Below, one piece after another: positions 2,034 to 31,713 of a stretch of 32,000 nucleotides of DNA (its first letter is position 1; each line of letters starts with the position of its first letter). The stretch is from Candidatus Saccharimonadota bacterium. GTDB taxonomy: Bacteria > Patescibacteriota > Saccharimonadia > Saccharimonadales > Saccharimonadaceae. Under the pieces are notes generated by a model that was not told the origin of the DNA, ran no database searches, and worked only from the letters and a program-made list of their open reading frames with translations. The stretch covers positions 400,700-432,699 of the forward strand of contig DIRZ01000003.1 in NCBI GenBank assembly GCA_002421785.1. The letters are read 5' to 3'. The position numbers were made by a program, and so were the translations under genes.

Positions 2034-5000
2034 CTAGGATATGGGCGGTGGGGTGTGCTTTTTGTCCGACTTAATAATCACATAAACCACTGCGCCAATG
2101 ACGATTAAGCCAATGGCAATCGTGAGTAGCGAGGTGTAGCCTTTGAGCATATAAAGCACCGCCAATGTCACACCCGCCGCACCCCACCACGTTGCAACAC
2201 GGTAGGCATAAACAAGTCCGGCAATCACAATCAAAACGTGCTCGATGAGGAACAGCAGCTGTGGGCCGCCGCCTTCAGAGAGTGCCGCATTCAGCGTTGG
2301 AAGACTGAGTAGCAGCAGGCCAATAATCAGCCGAACCTTTGCTTTAGGCCGCGTGCGAAGTGCGAGGTATGCGTAGGCAACTGCAAAAGCGGCGAAGGCC
2401 CAGAGATGCGTATACACAAGATGATGCATGTCGGGGAAGTACACGCCAATCATTCGCTGGAATCCAACCATACCGATAATCACACCAAGATCGACGAGTC
2501 GCAGCCGACGATACTCTCTGTCGTCATAACAGATTACCGAACCGATAGCCAGGAGCGCTATGCCTGCCGCCAGCACATCAGTCTGACTGCTTGAAAACAG
2601 AGCAAACATACCTGCGATTGTGGTTGTCAAGATTGCAGACAAGAACATAATATCCCAAACCGCCGCGTCATTGCGCCACGATCGGTAAACCCGCCCGCCG
2701 ACATAGAAGGCGCCCAGCCCCACCCATGCAATACAGACGGCCGTCTGCGTAAATGTAAGGCTGGCCCACGTGCCAACAAGCCCAGTTAAAATAATCGCTG
2801 CAAGGTTGGCGCCGTAAAGTAATTGACGATTCCCCGTGCGATACGTCGCGTGGTAGAGTGCCACCGCAGCCGCAAGCCATGCGACCGTTCGCCACATTGC
2901 ATCGTACTCACCAGCACTAAAATCAGAAAACAGTGTAAGCACACCAAACGTCACTGCGGTGAGCATGCCCGTCTGCCATGTAGCGGATAGTGCGGACCAC
3001 ATACGCCCACTCGAACGCCACCACTCACTGACGCCCACGAAGCCGATAAATGCCAGCCAGCCGATAAATGCGGTTGTTTCGGGCCACGTGAATTGAAGCA
3101 TTGCCGCAATCAGCCATAGCTCAACGACCGTTGCAATGTGCCCGAATGTTAGCGACACAACCGAGCGCGCTCGCCACGCAACGTAGTACAGTATGCCCAC
3201 GAGCGCCAACCAAGCTGCTGCTTTCAGGTTTGCTGCATCCACTGCGACGAGCGCAAACAGCGCGAGCGTCGTACCGATGATGATTCCGCCAATTTGAAGC
3301 AATTTACTGATATCGCCCCCTCGCTCACCATGCCTTCGTGCATACTCCCCGCCGCCAATCATCATCAACGCGTTAACCGCCGTCAATACGATAATCGTCG
3401 TATTGGTCGCCCAGTGATAATGTTGTCCCAAACTAGCAAGCACTGCGAGCACTGCCGCGTTGCCAAAAACAATCATTATGTCCACGCGCTCGCGAATCAC
3501 GATAAAGTAACAGGTTGCAGCAAGGATAATCCACCAGGCTGCACCCCACAGGCCACCAAGTAGCGGCGCCATTACTCCCATTATCATCAGCCAAACGCCG
3601 ACATATGAATATATGACCGCAGCCTCACCCACGTGGCCGGGGCGCATAACACGGACTCCAAACAGTGCGATGAGCATCAGGACATAGGTGATGAATAGCT
3701 GCTGGGTTTCAATGACAGGGCTGGCGACAAACTTACCAACCAGAAGCGGCAATACTGTCAGGCCTAGCAGAAGCGGTATCCCAAACTCGAATCGCCGTAG
3801 ACGAATTAAGGCATACATCGCCACTAGTACGATTGCGACGTATTCAACAGTCATAATAAACGCATTCCCAGGATTCGTAACATCTAGTACCATGCCCGTT
3901 GCCAAAAGCGCGACGCCGAAACCTATCCACTGCATAATTTCGTGATGACTATCGCCAGCCCGCAAGCGGGGCGCAAGGAAAGCAGTCGACGATACCGCAT
4001 TCACGAGGCCTGCAGCAGCAAGTGCATAGCTCATCATCACCCAGGAGTTGTCGGTGAGTGCCGCAACGAATGATACCGCCGCGATAATCATAATACAGCG
4101 TGCAACAACCCAGTACGTGGTTCGTAATGCAGTAGTACTCGCAATGACTGCCTGCGCCACATAATACAGCGCAGCGACACTAAATACAGCCGCATATTCA
4201 CCGGCTGTCATTGTCCAAAATGAAAATACCGCTCCGGTCAAAGCTACAGGTACGGCCACAGGGCTGGTTTTGACGATTGGCTCTGCAAATTCCTGGGGTA
4301 TCCACGCGTATTTATAGTGCGCCAAAAGCGTCAGGAACGAACCGAACGCGATCATCACCACGTAATACCACATAATCTGCGCATGGCCGACTGCTGGCAG
4401 TGTGCACGAGAAGATAAAAAGCGATAAGATGGACACATACGCAAGCAGCTGGCTTTTCATAGCCATGGTCGCGTGAATATACATAGCAGATCCAATGAGT
4501 GACGTCACGAGCCAACAGGTTGCAGCGTCTTTAGTGACAAGGTAATACATCGTGATGCCAGCGATTGGCACCGCTGCAAGCGCCGTGCCAATAAAAGCAA
4601 CTGCGGCAGGCTTAAGAATTGGCACGTGCCGATTGATGACAAAGCCAGCCACATAGAATACGAATATCATGAGCCAAACGATGGCGAACTTCACCCCATT
4701 GCCAAGGCCGATGGTTTGTGCGAGCAGAATAATACCCGACACCAGCAATAGACTCGCCACATACAACGCAATGTTGATGGTGTGACTTCGGTTTCGCTCA
4801 CGGCGCTCATCGTTCGTAATGGCAGTAGGGGCGAACGGCTGGCCAATATAGGTAGTATCGGCATTTGGACTGTCAAGTGTCGTCACATACCCATAGGGAC
4901 TCATTTGTAATGGGACATCAACATAATTGAGGGATGGGTCGGCTACCGCGGCTTCTGCCGGTGCGGCATAGTCCCCTGCTGCATATGTCGCAGGCATGGC

Positions 5001-5201
5001 AGGCTCAGGACTAATCGCAGGCTCTGGCTTAGGAGGCTCGGGTGAAATACCGTGCTTCTGCTCAGTCGCCCTTACGCCATCCCAGTAGCCCTGCCGGTAC
5101 GATATGCTGTAATAATCCAGCGTATCAGGCTGCTTGCCACTACGCGATACTAGCGCAATTACCAGTACGATAACCACAATAAATAGCAAAAATTCTAACA
5201 C
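2034..5201 (-). CDS. Very large polytopic integral membrane protein (1055 aa, about 30 hydrophobic segments), function unknown
   Basis: Uninterrupted 3.2-kb ORF with a GTG start, AAGGGG 9 nt upstream and a TATAAT at 5222..5217. It has an N-terminal TM helix, a Pro/Glu-rich linker (SPEPPKPEPAISPEPAMP), then continuous hydrophobic helices. G-E-Y motifs recur (TAGEYAAVF, GGGEYARRH, SAGEYDAMW). Confidence 0.8.
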   Translation of the reverse strand: MLEFLLFIVVIVLVIALVSRSGKQPDTLDYYSISYRQGYWDGVRATEQKHGISPEPPKPEPAISPEPAMPATYAAGDYAAPAEAAVADPSLNYVDVPLQMSPYGYVTTLDSPNADTTYIGQPFAPTAITNDERRERNRSHTINIALYVASLLLVSGIILLAQTIGLGNGVKFAIVWLMIFVFYVAGFVINRHVPILKPAAVAFIGTALAAVPIAGITMYYLVTKDAATCWLVTSLIGSAMYIHATMAMKSQLLAYVSILSLFIFSCTLPAVGHAQIMWYYVVMIAFGSFLTLLAHYKYAWIPQEFAEPIVKTSPVAVPVALTGAVFSFWTMTAGEYAAVFSVAALYYVAQAVIASTTALRTTYWVVARCIMIIAAVSFVAALTDNSWVMMSYALAAAGLVNAVSSTAFLAPRLRAGDSHHEIMQWIGFGVALLATGMVLDVTNPGNAFIMTVEYVAIVLVAMYALIRLRRFEFGIPLLLGLTVLPLLVGKFVASPVIETQQLFITYVLMLIALFGVRVMRPGHVGEAAVIYSYVGVWLMIMGVMAPLLGGLWGAAWWIILAATCYFIVIRERVDIMIVFGNAAVLAVLASLGQHYHWATNTTIIVLTAVNALMMIGGGEYARRHGERGGDISKLLQIGGIIIGTTLALFALVAVDAANLKAAAWLALVGILYYVAWRARSVVSLTFGHIATVVELWLIAAMLQFTWPETTAFIGWLAFIGFVGVSEWWRSSGRMWSALSATWQTGMLTAVTFGVLTLFSDFSAGEYDAMWRTVAWLAAAVALYHATYRTGNRQLLYGANLAAIILTGLVGTWASLTFTQTAVCIAWVGLGAFYVGGRVYRSWRNDAAVWDIMFLSAILTTTIAGMFALFSSSQTDVLAAGIALLAIGSVICYDDREYRRLRLVDLGVIIGMVGFQRMIGVYFPDMHHLVYTHLWAFAAFAVAYAYLALRTRPKAKVRLIIGLLLLSLPTLNAALSEGGGPQLLFLIEHVLIVIAGLVYAYRVATWWGAAGVTLAVLYMLKGYTSLLTIAIGLIVIGAVVYVIIKSDKKHTPPPIS

Positions 5202-26019: not shown

Positions 26020-26607
26020 TTAACGCTCTACGGGCTCAGCGTGAATACCAATCATTGAAAGCATTTCAGCCAGTACAGTAGTTGTCAAACCTACAACAGT
26101 GTCGTAACGACCGCTATAGCCCGCAATCAAAGGCGCGGCGCCGCTCTGGATACCGTAGGCCCCCGCTTTGTCCATACAGTCGCCCGTCGCCACATAGTCG
26201 CGAATTGCCTGCTCGTCGTACGGATTGAAGGTCACTTTGGTTGTGTCGCTATCGACAAGATGAATCCCCTCATCCAGACAGATGACTGCAATACCTGTGG
26301 TAACTTCGTGAGTTTTGCCAGCCAAAAGTGTCAGCATTTCGACTGCATTTTCAGGTGAAGTAGGCTTTTCGAGCTGCTTGCCGTCTATGCTCACAATCGT
26401 ATCCGCCCCTATCACCGTCGCCGCGGGAAATTCACGGGCGATCGCCATCGCCTTGCCAGCGGCCAGTTCTTCAGCCACGTCAGCCGGCTCGCGTGCATTA
26501 TTGAGTTGCTCGTCAAAATTGCTCGGCATTACGTCGAACACGATGCCCATTTCGGTCAAAAGTTCTTGCCTACGAGGGGACTGGCTTGCCAGAATAATTT
26601 TTGCCAT
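26020..26607 (-). CDS. maf: Maf-like nucleoside triphosphate pyrophosphatase
   Basis: MAKIILASQSPRRQELL..., GADTIV, GKP..., AGAYGIQ. Confidence 0.92.
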   Translation of the reverse strand: MAKIILASQSPRRQELLTEMGIVFDVMPSNFDEQLNNAREPADVAEELAAGKAMAIAREFPAATVIGADTIVSIDGKQLEKPTSPENAVEMLTLLAGKTHEVTTGIAVICLDEGIHLVDSDTTKVTFNPYDEQAIRDYVATGDCMDKAGAYGIQSGAAPLIAGYSGRYDTVVGLTTTVLAEMLSMIGIHAEPVER

Positions 26608-26683: not shown

Positions 26684-26760
26684 GGCACCGTAGCTCAGCT
26701 GGTTAGAGCGCAGGACTCATAAGCCTGAGGTCACAAGTTCAATCCTTGTCGGTGCTACCA
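26684..26760 (+). tRNA. tRNA with CAU anticodon (elongator Met type; lysidine-modified Ile2 not excluded), CCA encoded
   Basis: Hand-folded cloverleaf: acceptor GGCACCG/CGGTGCT (G1-U72 wobble), D arm GCTC-AGCTGGTTA-GAGC, anticodon arm CAGGA-CTCATAA-GCCTG (A31-G39 mismatch), variable loop AGGTC, T arm ACAAG-TTCAATC-CTTGT, A73, CCA. It lacks initiator features (no 1:72 mismatch, no GGG/CCC in the anticodon stem). Confidence 0.92.
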
Positions 26761-28645: not shown

Positions 28646-28675
28646 TTGACATTTTTGAGCCGCTTATGGTATAAA
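28646..28675 (+). promoter_or_regulatory. Promoter TTGACA-18-TATAAA for the 28704 gene
   Basis: TTGACA at 28646..28651 and TATAAA at 28670..28675, within an AT-rich divergent intergenic region. Confidence 0.5.
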
Positions 28676-28703
28676 TAACAGCAGAGGATAGCAAAACATA
28701 AAC

Positions 28704-29429
28704 ATGGACTACCCCACTATATTCGGGATTATCGGACTGGCCGCACTGATTCATGCCAGCTTTCAGCTGAGCATCAGCATGGTAACACTTCTCAGCGGCC
28801 ATAGCCTCGGCAGCAAAGCCAAGGCAAGCCGCGCGCTTCACTTAGCGGGCGCTTTTTTTGCTGGCGTCGTCGTCATGACCATGCTGTTCGTTTCGTTCCT
28901 GGCGTACCTTGCTACACAACTGTTCCCTCACTCCGTACCCGCGCTTGCATGGTCAGCAGTGGCAGGTATCTCCATCGGTCTCGGCGTCGCAGTGTGGGCA
29001 TTTTACTACCGCCGCACCAAAGTTGGAACGACCCTGTGGATACCACGGCCAATGGCCAGGTTCCTGAGTGAGCGCACGAAAGCCACGACGTTTGGCGCAG
29101 AAAGCTTCAGCCTTGGGCTGGTAAGCGTCATCGCCGAGGGAATCTTTATCATCGCGCCTGCCAGCGCGGCCGCACTTGCCCTCACCCAGCTGCCCGCCCC
29201 CCTGCAACTTGTAGGTATCGCCCTGTATACCGGTGTCGCGTCACTCGGCATCCTGGTGGTCATCATGCTCATTGGTGGCGGGCACAAGCTCAGCCGTATT
29301 CAAAAATGGCGCGAAGACAACAAACGATTCATGCAATTCGCTGCCGGAAGCGCCCTACTGGTGCTCGGGTTTTACATGTATGTCAATGAAGTAGTGGCAG
29401 CCGTGACTACTGTTACCGGGGGCCTATAG
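28704..29429 (+). CDS. Integral membrane protein (about 6 TM segments), function unknown
   Basis: 241-aa hydrophobic ORF. It vaguely resembles LysE/GAP-type small transporters, but I see no diagnostic motif. Its stop overlaps the next start (TAGTG). Confidence 0.7.
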   Translation: MDYPTIFGIIGLAALIHASFQLSISMVTLLSGHSLGSKAKASRALHLAGAFFAGVVVMTMLFVSFLAYLATQLFPHSVPALAWSAVAGISIGLGVAVWAFYYRRTKVGTTLWIPRPMARFLSERTKATTFGAESFSLGLVSVIAEGIFIIAPASAAALALTQLPAPLQLVGIALYTGVASLGILVVIMLIGGGHKLSRIQKWREDNKRFMQFAAGSALLVLGFYMYVNEVVAAVTTVTGGL

Positions 29430-29716
29430 TGACCACGAAAGCTATTGACGTCGTCAAGCGCCGGGGCAAGCGCGCCACCGAGCCGTTTGACCGCGATAAA
29501 CTACACGCCAGCGTGTATGCCGCTTGCCTGAGTGTCCGAAGCCCCGAGGGCCACGCCCGCCAAACTGCCGAACACGTATGTAATGTCGTGGAAGCCTGGA
29601 GCGCCAACAAACACGTCATTACTAGCGAAGATATCCGCCGCCAAGCCGCCAAAGCACTTGCCCCCCACCATCCGGAAGCCGCGTATTTATACCAACATCA
29701 CCGAGTGATTTTATAA
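29429..29716 (+). CDS. Stand-alone ATP-cone domain protein (95 aa)
   Basis: GTG start. IDVVKRRGKRATEPFDRDKLHASVYAAC...VITSEDIRRQAAKAL...AAYLYQHH fits the ATP-cone pattern (V-KRdG--EpFdr-Ki). There is no zinc ribbon (so not NrdR) and no attached RNR domain. Confidence 0.7.
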   Translation: MTTKAIDVVKRRGKRATEPFDRDKLHASVYAACLSVRSPEGHARQTAEHVCNVVEAWSANKHVITSEDIRRQAAKALAPHHPEAAYLYQHHRVIL

Positions 29717-29728
29717 GGAGAACAAACC

Positions 29729-31105
29729 ATGGCCAAGAAACCACAATTCGACTACGACCTGATTATTATCGGTAGTGGTGCCGGTGGATCGGCTGCCGCC
29801 ACCATTGCAGCGCGTGAAGGCAAAAAAGTCGCCATCATCGAGTCCGAAACCTTTGGCGGCGATTCACCCAACTGGAGTGATGTGCCTACTAAGGCACTGT
29901 TGCACGCTGCTCAGCTATACGACGAAGCACGCCACGGCGCCAGGTTTGGCCTGCGCAGCAACACGCTGGGCTACAACTACCCGAGCCTGCGCACCTGGAA
30001 AGAACTCGCCGTCAAGCGAACGGGCGCAGCTGGCAACAAGAAATTCTACGAATCACAAGGTATCGACGCATTCCTGGGCAATGCACACTTTTTGTCACCC
30101 CATGAAGTGACCGTCAACCGCCGGCACATAACCGCCGCGCATTTTTTGGTGGCTACAGGGTCACACTGGGTCGCCCCTGACATTCAGGGCCTGGCCGATA
30201 TTCATTACCTGACACCGCGCACCATCCTGGAATCGATTCGCCCCCCAAAGAGCCTGTACATTATTGGTGGCGGCACCATTGGCGTGGAGCTAGCGCAACT
30301 AATGGCAATTTTTGGCACAAAGGTTTACCTAGCCGAAGTGGCCGCACGCATCCTGCCTAAAGAAGACGAAGAAGTCGGCGAGCTGATTGAACGGCTGCTG
30401 CTGGAAAACAAAGGCGTCACGACACTCACGCAAACTCGCACCCTCAGCATCATCAAAGATGGGCTCGGCGCGCGCGTCACGTTCCTGCGTGGCGGCGTAG
30501 AAAAATCAGTCCGCGTGGACGAAATTCTGATTGCCACTGGCCGCACACCAAGTGTTGATTTGGGCCTCGAAAATGCCTCGATTCAATACACTCCTGCCGG
30601 CATCGAGGTGAACGAACACCTGCAAACGAGCGCTCGACACATTTATGCTGCCGGGGACGTGCTTGGCCATAGTCGTCACACGCACACCGCACTGCACGAA
30701 AGCCGCGTCGCCGCGCACAACATCCTCATGAAAACACGTGTTGCGCCAGACTATACCGCCTCACCACGCCTGACGTTTACGTTCCCTGGCGTCGCATCAG
30801 TCGGGCTGAGCGAAGATGATTGCCTGAAGCGCGACCTGCCCATCAACAAAGCAACGGCCCCTCTCGGTATCATCGCCCGCAGTAATACGAGTGATTTCCA
30901 TGACGGCTTCGTGAAGGTCATCACCGACAAAAAAGGCGTTATCCTCGGCGCGACCGTCGTTGCCCCCCACGCCGCCGAAATCGTACACGAACTGGCCCTT
31001 GCGGTGAAGTACGGCCTGACCGCCAGTCAAGTCGCCGCCACGCCGCACGCGTTCCTAAGCTGGAGTGAAGGAGTTCGCGTCGCATGCGGCAAGCTCGCCC
31101 GATAG
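29729..31105 (+). CDS. Class-I pyridine nucleotide-disulfide oxidoreductase homolog (Lpd/GR-like) lacking the redox-active CxxxxC
   Basis: SD AAGGAG. FAD motif DLIIIGSGAGGSAAA, NAD motif IIGGGTIGVELA, and GRTP / AAGD motifs. The active-site region reads GGDSPNWSDVPTKALLH instead of GGxCxNxGCxPSKALLH, and the C-terminal HAFLSWSE replaces HAHPTxxE. Confidence 0.85.
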   Translation: MAKKPQFDYDLIIIGSGAGGSAAATIAAREGKKVAIIESETFGGDSPNWSDVPTKALLHAAQLYDEARHGARFGLRSNTLGYNYPSLRTWKELAVKRTGAAGNKKFYESQGIDAFLGNAHFLSPHEVTVNRRHITAAHFLVATGSHWVAPDIQGLADIHYLTPRTILESIRPPKSLYIIGGGTIGVELAQLMAIFGTKVYLAEVAARILPKEDEEVGELIERLLLENKGVTTLTQTRTLSIIKDGLGARVTFLRGGVEKSVRVDEILIATGRTPSVDLGLENASIQYTPAGIEVNEHLQTSARHIYAAGDVLGHSRHTHTALHESRVAAHNILMKTRVAPDYTASPRLTFTFPGVASVGLSEDDCLKRDLPINKATAPLGIIARSNTSDFHDGFVKVITDKKGVILGATVVAPHAAEIVHELALAVKYGLTASQVAATPHAFLSWSEGVRVACGKLAR

Positions 31106-31713
31106 ACCGTCCTCATCAATCATCAGGCTTTACAATCGTCGAGCTGCTCGTAGCGATTGTTGTGATTGCCATTCTCGCATCGATTACTGTTGTCGCATAT
31201 AACGGTATGCAGGACCGAGCCTACGCGACCGACCTAATGAGTCGCATCAACACGTACAAAAAACTCTTGCAGCTTTACCACACTGAACACGGTCAGTTTC
31301 CCGACACAAATGACGCATTTGCGCTCGGCTCCTACGGATCGTGCCTAGGCAAACTATCGGACTACCCCGCCGAAGATGGATGGCCAGCTGGCGTATGCAT
31401 GCAATCAATTGGCAGCACCAACTGGAATGAGTTCGCAAGCGATGACTTCACAAATGCCCTACAACCCTATAGCCGGTCCGCCCTCCCTAGCGGCAAAATA
31501 CGTACTGCGACTGAAATGTACGATGCAACACGAGGTACTCGCTATCGCGGCATCTACTTCGAAGGCGCTGGTGGCAATGGCAACAACGACTGGGCGTATA
31601 TGGAATACGTTGCAAAAGGCAATGTTGCATGCCCACAGTCTGACTACAAACGATATAACGCAGCACCGCAAAACGTAACATTTTGCGGCTATCTCGTTAG
31701 GCAAGCCGACTAG
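31084..31713 (+). CDS. Type IV pilin-like protein (prepilin-type N-terminal cleavage/methylation domain)
   Basis: MRQARPIDRPHQSSG|FTIVELLVAIVVIAILASITVVAYNG: a G-FTxxE prepilin peptidase site plus a hydrophobic helix. Two Cys pairs lie in the C-terminal half. The start overlaps the preceding gene by 22 nt. Confidence 0.85.
   Translation: MRQARPIDRPHQSSGFTIVELLVAIVVIAILASITVVAYNGMQDRAYATDLMSRINTYKKLLQLYHTEHGQFPDTNDAFALGSYGSCLGKLSDYPAEDGWPAGVCMQSIGSTNWNEFASDDFTNALQPYSRSALPSGKIRTATEMYDATRGTRYRGIYFEGAGGNGNNDWAYMEYVAKGNVACPQSDYKRYNAAPQNVTFCGYLVRQAD

Follow-up and report, generated by a model that had tools for sequence, protein, structure and literature searches.

The window analysed here, a stretch of 32,000 nucleotides from a Candidatus Saccharimonadota bacterium (assembly GCA_002421785.1, contig DIRZ01000003.1, positions 400,700 to 432,699 of the forward strand), lies in a 1.04-Mb genome that is 98.6% complete. 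Three genes on the plus strand of the window form a compact cassette. The first (28704..29429) encodes a multi-pass membrane protein of 241 residues, with six transmembrane segments (6-TM), that is a homologue of the DsbD/CcdA superfamily. The second (29429..29716) encodes a stand-alone ATP-cone of 95 residues (Pfam PF03477). The third (29729..31105), the principal subject of this study, encodes a 458-residue homologue of the class-I flavoprotein disulfide reductases (FDRs) from a MerA-like/PRK06370-like branch, from which both the redox-active cysteines and the catalytic histidine are missing. The genes overlap or lie 12 nucleotides apart, with no terminator-like site in between: the GTG start codon of the ATP-cone overlaps the stop of the membrane gene (TAGTG), and an AAGGAG ribosome-binding site is found 7 nucleotides 5' of the flavoprotein start. 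This order, from membrane gene to ATP-cone to flavoprotein, recurs in nearly all related loci of the family, the order and beyond. A promoter-like sequence on the same strand, TTGACA-N18-TATAAA with a TG before the -10 hexamer (28648..28678), lies about 25 nucleotides 5' of the start codon of the membrane protein. It was recognized by eye and is a consensus match only; a consensus promoter scan passed over this site on account of the final A of its second hexamer.

The translation of the flavoprotein reading frame is free of stops and matches the Pfam domains Pyr_redox_2 (E 8e-54), Pyr_redox (1e-15) and Pyr_redox_dim (7e-22). An AlphaFold2 model based on 102 sequences (pLDDT 95.6, pTM 0.92) superimposes in Foldseek with TM scores of 0.92-0.95 on MerA (4ywo, 5x1y) and dihydrolipoamide dehydrogenase (Lpd; 1ebd), among others. 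Domain matches, model and structural neighbours all place the protein, at the level of the fold, in the class-I pyridine nucleotide-disulfide oxidoreductase superfamily. An initial annotation, made from the letters alone, had recognized both dinucleotide motifs as intact, and so they are: GSGAGGSAAA (residues 15-24; 29771-29800, plus strand) together with Glu38 forms the site for flavin adenine dinucleotide (FAD), and GGGTIGVELA (residues 180-189; 30266-30295, plus strand) together with Glu187 and Glu203 forms the NAD site, while AAGD310 supplies the GD motif. The NAD-binding Rossmann segment extends from GGGTIGVE (residues 180-187) to Glu203, at the end of β2 in KVYLAE (30266..30337, plus strand). 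In Rossmann folds an acidic residue at the end of β2 goes with a preference for NADH, and the acidic Glu203 suggests that the flavoprotein would share this preference.

None of the named NCBIfam families claims the protein, since no family cut-off is reached. The top model is NF004991, 'FAD-containing oxidoreductase' (349.1 bits against a cut-off of 620), followed by MerA (TIGR02053; 345.9 against 454.45) and Lpd (TIGR01350; 334.5 against 408.8). The models for glutathione reductase (GR), mycothione reductase, soluble transhydrogenase (STH; NF003585, 225.9 bits against 465) and the LpdA-type NAD(P)H-quinone dehydrogenase (NF005883, 195.5 against 479) all score the protein lower than these three.

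The former disulfide segment, GGDSPNWSDVPTKALLH (residues 43-59; 29855..29905, plus strand), was delineated by alignment to solved structures. HMMER alignments set Ser46 (TCA, 29864-29866) and Asp51 (GAT, 29879-29881) opposite the interchange and the flavin-proximal cysteine, respectively, of MerA 5x1y (GGTCVNIGCVPSK) and of Lpd 1ebd (GGVCLNVGCIPSK), and the same correspondence is obtained with Lpd 2eq6. Position 51 is that of the flavin-proximal, charge-transfer cysteine, which we take from the established assignment for this enzyme family; the carboxylate of Asp51 would thus now occupy the former thiolate site. In the C-terminal interface motif PHAFLSWSE (residues 439-447; 31043..31069, plus strand) Glu447 is kept, Leu443 stands for the conserved proline, and Phe442 (31052-31054) occupies the position of the catalytic histidine, opposite the second histidine of the Lpd sequence HAHPT and opposite the tyrosine of MerA (APYLTMAEG). 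Both substitutions read in the initial annotation, Ser46/Asp51 for the CxxxxC cysteines and Phe for the histidine, are therefore verified in position and codon. The protein lacks the redox-active CxxxxC of group 1 flavoprotein disulfide reductases and, although Glu447 is present, their His-Glu dyad. With no CxxxxC, and with scores below every Lpd, MerA, GR and STH cut-off, the earlier conclusion stands to the extent that the protein cannot be a disulfide reductase of the classical dithiol type. The accompanying statement, that no characterised Lpd, GR or MerA can do without the His-Glu pair, is wrong for MerA, which has tyrosine at the histidine site.

The substitutions are not peculiar to this sequence. 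More than 120 clusters of flavoprotein homologues at 80-100% identity emerged from a large protein search, and those that carry a name are labelled 'Candidatus Saccharibacteria', 'Saccharimonas' or 'Patescibacteria'. Across these clusters GG[DE]SPNWSD[VI]P and PHAFLSWSE are near-invariant. In the 33 sequences that make up the clade of the window gene within the family, Ser46 and Asp51 are conserved in every member, and aspartate occupies position 51 in 40 of 44 Cys-less flavoproteins even where position 46 is Ala, Asn or Gln. Because at least two base changes per cysteine codon are needed to reach TCA or GAT, a sequencing slip does not explain the replacements. Only eight alignment positions distinguish the clade from the CxxxxC forms (C46S, C51D, F224L, K272R, Q324E, I379L, S409T and P443L), and thus the rest of the enzyme has been retained; the residues of the former substrate pocket (S46, N48, D51, F442, W445 and E447) and the motifs that contact FAD and NAD show the tight conservation of working enzymes.

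In six-frame searches an intact reading frame for the flavoprotein was found in all 100 other sampled genomes of the same family, which measure 0.6-1.2 Mb; for the class the gene was recovered from 124 of 300 genomes, and for the phylum from 26 of 201. For L005/L043, the sole pair of loci with unsaturated synonymous divergence (dS), the ratio of nonsynonymous to synonymous divergence (dN/dS) is 0.028 for the flavoprotein, 0.049 for the membrane protein and about 0 for the ATP-cone; other pairs give 0.05-0.08, and a CxxxxC-type pair (L076/L079) gives 0.05. Judged by these ratios, the three surviving genes of the cassette are all under strong purifying selection. The suspicion that the substitutions might reflect an error or a pseudogene is answered by the homologues, the codon distances and the selection data together: on this evidence the Cys-less flavoprotein is a conserved clade, a point that the initial annotation had proposed to test. 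One locus of the same genus departs from its congeners (L063; G423:C19:40927-42309). Its flavoprotein is only 52% identical to that of the window and reads GGGAPNWGD, where congeners are 76-78% identical, and, unlike in those congeners, an adjacent membrane or ATP-cone gene was not detected.

The same gene order is on record for Southlakia epibionticum, where SEML1_0736 (744 nucleotides), SEML1_0737 (288 nucleotides, ATP-cone) and SEML1_0738 (1377 nucleotides, annotated as NAD(P)/FAD-dependent oxidoreductase) follow one another (PMC10633639). SEML1_0736 is listed as 'DsbD 2 domain', and by structure it is matched to proteins named 'cytochrome c biogenesis transmembrane domain' (PMC10633639 Table S2). 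All three genes belong to the core of the family and are non-essential in transposon sequencing (Tn-seq) of the co-culture (PMC10633639); their normalised reads drop in parallel from T0 to T2, from 2084 to 698, from 303 to 90 and from 3653 to 756 (PMC10633639 Table S1).

Dispensability in laboratory co-culture might be taken to mean that the flavoprotein is a pseudo-enzyme without selected function, on its way to being lost. The disappearance of the client protein and of all relay cysteines, described below, and the long branches and degenerate motifs of some lineages could be read in the same sense. Such a decaying relic would hardly be expected to persist as an intact reading frame in every one of the 100 sampled genomes of so small a size, or to hold Ser46 and Asp51 invariant in its clade. 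It is contradicted most directly by the selection data, as dN/dS values of 0.03-0.08 equal that of the CxxxxC-type pair, and we consider it very improbable.

The loss of the histidine has a separate history from that of the cysteines. In an exhaustive search of representatives, the nearest CxxxxC relatives read GGECPNxxCVPTK together with IHA[FY]PT[WF]SE, and an aromatic residue occupies the histidine position in every CxxxxC locus fetched later as well. Since all CxxxxC relatives share this feature, the aromatic residue is the ancestral state of this MerA-like branch, and by this comparison the loss of the histidine predates the losses of the cysteines. The initial annotation had joined the two; Phe442 is real, but it did not arise in the same event. 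The nearest CxxxxC representatives, P0124 and P0132, come from contigs that, at 3.2 and 1.8 kb, do not extend far enough to show their gene context. Phenylalanine at the catalytic-histidine site is also known in 2-KPCC, the 2-ketopropyl-CoM oxidoreductase/carboxylase (PMC8358701).

With CxxxxC gone, only two cysteines are left in the whole protein, Cys365 and Cys453, and a shifted CxxxxC was not found in it. Cys453 (31085..31087, plus strand) is, by comparison with relatives, the relic of a C-terminal tail cysteine (VAC). Cys365 (30821..30823) is a cysteine in 39 of 47 Cys-less flavoproteins and Leu, Ala or Val in 19 of 21 CxxxxC forms; on this distribution its gain dates to the base of the family. 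Cys365 aligns with alanine in the solved MerA and Lpd structures, in the helix after ASVGLTE, and by homology it lies away from the flavin. Could the protein nonetheless still be a thiol enzyme, either a true E3/Lpd, as some sources imply when they name homologues 'dihydrolipoamide dehydrogenase (E3)', or a reductase that works through Cys365 or Cys453? The wide occurrence of Cys365 among the Cys-less proteins is in favour of the latter. The remoteness of that residue from the flavin speaks against it, as does the loss of Cys453 from most members of the clade, and many orthologues have a single cysteine in total. A shifted CxxxxC, or a single-cysteine mechanism via Cys365, was rejected on the alignment alone.

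The E3/Lpd form of this reading was rejected on the Lpd score, which at 334.5 bits is below the cut-off of 408.8, and on its missing lipoylated partners. Neither the E2 acyltransferase of 2-oxoacid dehydrogenases (PF00198) nor a lipoyl/biotinyl domain (PF00364) was found in the 98.6%-complete genome, in searches that recovered them in 10 of 14 and 14 of 14 reference genomes, respectively, and the name 'E3' is therefore wrong. Thiol reduction is in any case covered by other genes: the genome contains two TrxB-like open reading frames (ORFs; 311.8 and 327.4 bits, just under the thioredoxin reductase cut-off) and two thioredoxin-fold ORFs. Taken together, these observations leave a surviving thiol enzyme scarcely credible.

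The initial annotation remarked on the coupling of the flavoprotein to an ATP-cone and a pilin gene. The ATP-cone is indeed a conserved partner, whereas the pilin occurs beside the flavoprotein in the window genome only, among some 90 loci. The decisive neighbour is the upstream 6-TM protein of the DsbD/CcdA superfamily, whose cysteine pair has also been lost. In other families of Saccharibacteria the membrane protein has two cysteines, in the motifs IDSINPCA and ELPCTGAPY. At these positions the protein of the window has leucine (IHASFQLS for IDSINPCA, in TM1) and phenylalanine (EGIFII for ELPCTG); it contains no cysteine at all, and thus lacks the one essential cysteine per half-domain expected in the DsbD/CcdA superfamily. 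That the two forms are homologous is indicated by hhalign, which matches the profile of the Cys-less form (A7) to that of the Cys-pair type (A1) with 98.65% probability (E 5e-16, 221 columns). The Cys-pair type in turn gives a weak match to NF001419, the membrane domain of DsbD (E 3e-6 to 1e-5, short of the curated cut-off), and the protein of the window is thus homologous to the DsbD-type transmembrane domain. Weak matches of the Cys-pair type to the ArsG permease family and to Pfam SfLAP were also recorded, and a sequence-profile search of the PDB with it gave nothing meaningful. The Cys-less membrane proteins have acquired new invariant polar residues (H17, Q21, H33, E133 and E145) and contain a highly conserved loop, FYYRRxxGTxLWIPR.

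The second gene is a genuine ATP-cone, scoring 38.4 bits on PF03477 against a cut-off of 25.8. The K-R motif is present in VVKRRGKR...EPFDRDKL, and the N-terminal sequence VVKRxGxRxxExFDxxKL, predicted to bind nucleotide, is conserved. A literature search found nothing joining the ATP-cone with Saccharibacteria, and another, on Saccharibacteria and dihydrolipoamide dehydrogenase, found nothing relevant.

The origin of the cassette becomes apparent when the Cys-pair membrane protein is followed outward. A search of species-representative genomes with this protein returned more than 570 relatives; the locus counts that follow refer to the best 80 of these (loci L103-L182). Their hosts are Saccharibacteria, other lineages of the candidate phyla radiation (CPR; for example Levyi-, Curtiss-, Nomura-, Doudna- and Parcubacteria) and DPANN archaea (Woese-, Aenigm-, Pace-, Micr- and Nanoarchaeota), at 56-91% identity. 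In 71 of the 80 loci a gene for a protein of 240-380 residues, here called the HWH protein, lies directly 5' of the membrane gene (for example L103:2075-2998 and, apart from the 80, L009:42-782, both on the plus strand and directly 5' of a Cys-pair DsbD-like gene). An ATP-cone gene comes after the membrane gene in 54 of the 80, and 33 of these have no adjacent flavoprotein gene (within L134-L181, in CPR and DPANN; for example L135:3716-3979 and L140:3703-3966). Because the ATP-cone follows the membrane gene in these 33 loci without a flavoprotein, its primary tie is to the membrane protein. The Cys-pair membrane proteins of CPR bacteria and those of DPANN archaea (L123-L182) are 56-70% identical, a degree of similarity that suggests transfer between domains among ultrasmall organisms; several of these contigs are labelled as Gammaproteobacteria, Lysobacterales or Methanosarcinales metagenome-assembled genomes and may be mis-binned.

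The HWH protein consists of two N-terminal helices followed by a β-rich domain with the motifs GGPVHWHADFEIWxCG, HEHNDxRIHxEG and VPPGDCxIxEF. Four cysteines are conserved, and H72, H74, C82, H105, H107, D109, H113, E115 and D211 are invariant. It belongs to no family in Pfam or NCBIfam; a sequence-profile search of the PDB (A5) gave nothing meaningful; its AlphaFold2 model (pLDDT 94.9) found no PDB match in Foldseek at E<=0.001; a wide VIA-align search with the model matched the N-terminal helical hairpin alone; and its neighbours in the ESM atlas are exclusively 'hypothetical protein' clusters from DPANN and Saccharimonadota. From its residues it looks like a metal- or thiol-handling protein of the envelope. 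Of the 80 loci, 44 have a gene for a P-type cation ATPase (E1-E2_ATPase, Cation_ATPase_N/C) no more than 3 kb from the HWH/DsbD-like pair (for example L103:1-1986 on the minus strand and L123:87-2171 on the plus strand); among the 33 loci that bear a flavoprotein gene the number is 30. Such proximity is a hint of some connection with the handling of ions or metals.

The presence of the HWH gene parallels the cysteines of the membrane protein. In the first set of loci it lies directly 5' in all 10 Cys-pair loci and, an HWH remnant at L081 aside, in none of the Cys-less loci. Genome-wide, 10 of the 300 class genomes yielded it, and nine of these 10 are the ones whose membrane proteins have the Cys pair; it turned up in none of 100 genomes of the window family, in none of five of a second Cys-less family, and not in the window genome. 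At L081:1275-1547 (plus strand), in the second lineage to lose the cysteines, there is a faint HWH match (17.8 bits, E 5e-4) directly 5' of a Cys-less membrane gene, perhaps what is left of an HWH gene. Comparison shows that the present module descends from a thiol-bearing system widespread in CPR and DPANN. The older system consists of the exported HWH protein, the Cys-pair DsbD-like membrane protein and the ATP-cone, which in Saccharibacteria and some other CPR lineages are joined by a CxxxxC flavoprotein disulfide reductase, usually with a tail cysteine.

The order in which the cysteines disappeared can be read from the distribution of states among 70 flavoproteins of the cassette clade, tabulated together with outgroups. 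Ten loci combine a CxxxxC flavoprotein with a Cys-pair membrane protein, five combine CxxxxC with a Cys-less membrane protein, two have a flavoprotein with one cysteine beside a Cys-less membrane protein, and in 44 both proteins are Cys-less. The reverse combination, a Cys-less flavoprotein beside a membrane protein that retains its pair, occurs in none. The remaining nine flavoproteins, six of them CxxxxC and three Cys-less, have no adjacent membrane gene. In an independent set of 33 flavoproteins fetched via the membrane protein, all lie beside Cys-pair proteins and all are CxxxxC. On a maximum-likelihood tree the Cys-pair membrane state forms a basal grade, and at the base of each of two clades (SH-aLRT support 99 in both) the membrane cysteines were lost. 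CxxxxC is still present in the basal members of both (L080, L081 and L085 in the first clade; L057 and L061 in the second) and absent from the derived members. A minimum of two changes of membrane state and five of flavoprotein state is required. The direction is taken as loss because of the outgroup rooting and the universality of CxxxxC in the superfamily; with just two independent losses of the membrane cysteines, the ordering is a pattern and not a statistic. The tail cysteine (VAC at 453, or KIxC a few residues later) is present in most CxxxxC forms and gone from most Cys-less forms, though the flavoprotein of the window retains Cys453. We infer that the exported HWH protein and the membrane cysteines were lost first, and the flavoprotein cysteines later.

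It is possible on these grounds to propose how the module worked and works. In the ancestral system electrons would have passed from NAD(P)H to FAD, then to CxxxxC, in most cases through the tail cysteine, to the membrane cysteine pair, and finally to a client in the envelope. In this family the HWH gene has gone and the membrane cysteines have been replaced, after which the flavoprotein lost Cys46 and Cys51 and, in most members, the tail cysteine too. The present flavoprotein would still bind FAD and NADH and accept hydride from NADH onto FAD, from where electrons would go straight to an acceptor other than a thiol (O2, a quinone-like compound or a metal ion, for example). It would probably be docked at its membrane partner, with the ATP-cone probably serving as a nucleotide sensor. 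Flavin-only oxidation of NADH at a membrane module is ranked first because Cys-depleted relatives act as flavin-only NAD(P)H oxidoreductases, and we put it at about an even chance of being right.

Several observations weigh against flavin-only NADH oxidation. Neither a heme-copper oxidase (COX1) nor cytochrome bd was found in the genome, so that a role as a respiratory quinone reductase is without a visible downstream partner; the genome contains one UbiA-family ORF. A prediction of the complex of the three cassette proteins from alignment inputs (score 0.10, mark 0.32) speaks neither for nor against binding. The equivalence of SEML1_0738 is by gene order, gene lengths and annotation, and not by sequence. 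The tree came from a quick search and was rooted on long-branch outgroups that have no cassette. Lys55, invariant in canonical enzymes, varies among some Cys-less members. Finally, the NAD GxGxxG or the Asp of the GD motif is degenerate in several fast-evolving Cys-less lineages in which the gene is still kept, and the decay of cofactor motifs with persistence of the gene gives a hint that it is not catalysis that is conserved in every lineage.

That last hint leads to a different view of the flavoprotein, as a regulatory or scaffold subunit that senses NADH/NAD+ or is purely structural, and that together with the ATP-cone (responding to ATP/dATP) would control the Cys-less membrane protein, by now a transporter of small molecules or ions like other members of the LysE/DsbD superfamily. 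Besides the decayed cofactor motifs of some lineages, the 33 CPR/DPANN loci that keep the ATP-cone and membrane genes without a flavoprotein favour this view, since they mark the membrane protein as the core of the system. So do the replacement of the membrane cysteines by hydrophobic residues, with the invariant polar residues and the conserved loop appearing or being kept, and the match of the Cys-pair type to the ArsG efflux permease family. It is harder to reconcile with a clade in which the FAD and NAD motifs and the former substrate pocket are conserved as in working enzymes, and gene context in the family points to no transport substrate. We regard a regulatory or scaffold role as the main rival, possible but less likely than not.

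An enzyme of the STH type, shuttling hydride between NADH and NADP+ through FAD as SthA/UdhA does, would also dispense with a disulfide. STH belongs to the same superfamily and is without the catalytic histidine and at least one redox cysteine (PMC6296175), and the flavoprotein does score 225.9 bits on the STH model. That score is far under the cut-off of 465 and also under the MerA and Lpd scores, and the flavoprotein comes from another, MerA-like branch and is encoded beside a membrane protein. A soluble transhydrogenase does not account for the conserved membrane and ATP-cone partners, and Glu203 suggests a single, NAD-type site. A transhydrogenase function is thus improbable.

A broader and more speculative proposal concerns the ancestral cassette itself. 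It may have been an undescribed, thioredoxin-independent route for moving reducing power across the membrane in CPR and DPANN, running from a tail-Cys flavoprotein through a CcdA-like cysteine pair to an exported His/Cys-rich protein and gated by the ATP-cone. The five-cysteine relay would have been deleted residue by residue in this family, and the complex re-used at the membrane in a new function that needs no thiols, such as transport controlled by NADH/ATP or the oxidation of NADH, which is now a fixed core trait. We advance this as a tentative idea that could well prove wrong.

The surroundings of the cassette in the window call for brief comment. A type IV pilin-like gene with an N_methyl motif (209 residues; 31084..31713, plus strand) overlaps the flavoprotein stop by 22 nucleotides. 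It was rejected as a fourth member of the cassette, as it follows the flavoprotein in 0 of about 90 other related loci; because it stands at this position in the window genome only, it represents a lineage-specific insertion at the 3' end of the operon. On the 5' side lie a gene for a Maf-like NTP pyrophosphatase (26020..26607, minus strand) and tRNA-Met (26684..26760, plus strand). The S. epibionticum neighbourhood consists of tRNA-Met, NTP diphosphatase, the cassette and tRNA-Met (PMC10633639 Table S1). The resemblance suggests that synteny has been conserved, the window genome having acquired a metallopeptidase and a small membrane protein by insertion. Further away, a 1055-residue ORF (2034..5201, minus strand) has no Pfam match at E<=0.001, and its neighbours are housekeeping genes (DnaK, LepA, MurJ, FtsH, TilS-like, DinB and Maf).

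Saccharibacteria have genomes of about 1 Mb and very little redox metabolism. In such redox-poor genomes, a flavoprotein found in every sampled genome of the family is a meaningful unknown, and it currently goes under the mistaken name 'dihydrolipoamide dehydrogenase (E3)' or the generic 'NAD(P)/FAD-dependent oxidoreductase'. The loci provide an unusually complete and ordered example of a thiol relay that was dismantled while its protein scaffold was retained, in a series that runs from the full thiol system, through loss of the membrane cysteines, to loss of the flavoprotein cysteines. They also point to an undescribed envelope system of CPR and DPANN, made up of the HWH protein, the DsbD-like protein and the ATP-cone, and they place an ATP-cone in a context outside ribonucleotide reductase and NrdR, the first such context seen in this analysis. 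Both S. epibionticum and N. lyticus can by now be manipulated genetically, so that the function of the module is directly testable.

Among known systems, the best functional analogue of the flavoprotein is, by argument from analogy, Irc15p of Saccharomyces cerevisiae, which has likewise lost both active-site cysteines from the class-I FDR fold (PMC6296175). Irc15p binds FAD and is reduced by NADH but has no disulfide reductase activity; it passes electrons to ferricyanide, DCPIP, MTT and menadione, and reacts slowly with O2 (PMC6296175). Unlike the flavoprotein, it is a eukaryotic paralogue of Lpd1, and thus of independent origin, that keeps the His-Glu dyad where the flavoprotein has Phe442, and it is associated with microtubules rather than with membrane or ATP-cone partners. 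LpdA of Mycobacterium tuberculosis (Rv3303c) is another FDR homologue without part of the disulfide and the His-Glu dyad, and is a quinone reductase that does not reduce disulfides (PMC6296175). It keeps one cysteine, however, and differs in branch and gene context; the score of 195.5 bits against the NF005883 cut-off of 479 indicates that the flavoprotein is not a member of the LpdA family. STH (a transhydrogenase; PMC6296175) shares with the flavoprotein the lack of a disulfide and, presumably, hydride transfer by the flavin alone, but is soluble, whereas the flavoprotein is linked to a membrane module. 2-KPCC, which belongs to the DSOR family (disulfide oxidoreductases), likewise has phenylalanine for the histidine of the His-Glu motif (PMC8358701), but it keeps its redox disulfide and uses a Phe-His dyad, and its carboxylation chemistry is without evidence in the case of the flavoprotein.

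The closest relatives in sequence and fold are in the MerA-like/PRK06370 branch (NF004991, TIGR02053; 5x1y, 4ywo), in which an aromatic residue likewise replaces the catalytic histidine, and the C-terminal cysteine of the ancestral forms is reminiscent of the C-terminal cysteine pair of MerA. The flavoprotein differs from MerA in having no CxxxxC, a single Cys453 in place of the C-terminal Cys-Cys pair, and no mer operon context. For the membrane partner the comparison is with DsbD, CcdA and ScsB, of which it is a homologue; its ancestral form, with one cysteine in each of two PC-containing motifs, resembles CcdA. Known DsbD-family proteins draw electrons from the thioredoxin system (PMC3322552). 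The ancestral cassette would have followed the same logic, from a cytoplasmic reductant to a membrane cysteine pair to a client in the envelope. It differs from the DsbD family in the dedicated FDR and the ATP-cone whose genes accompany that of the membrane protein, and in that both membrane cysteines have since disappeared from the family to which the window belongs.

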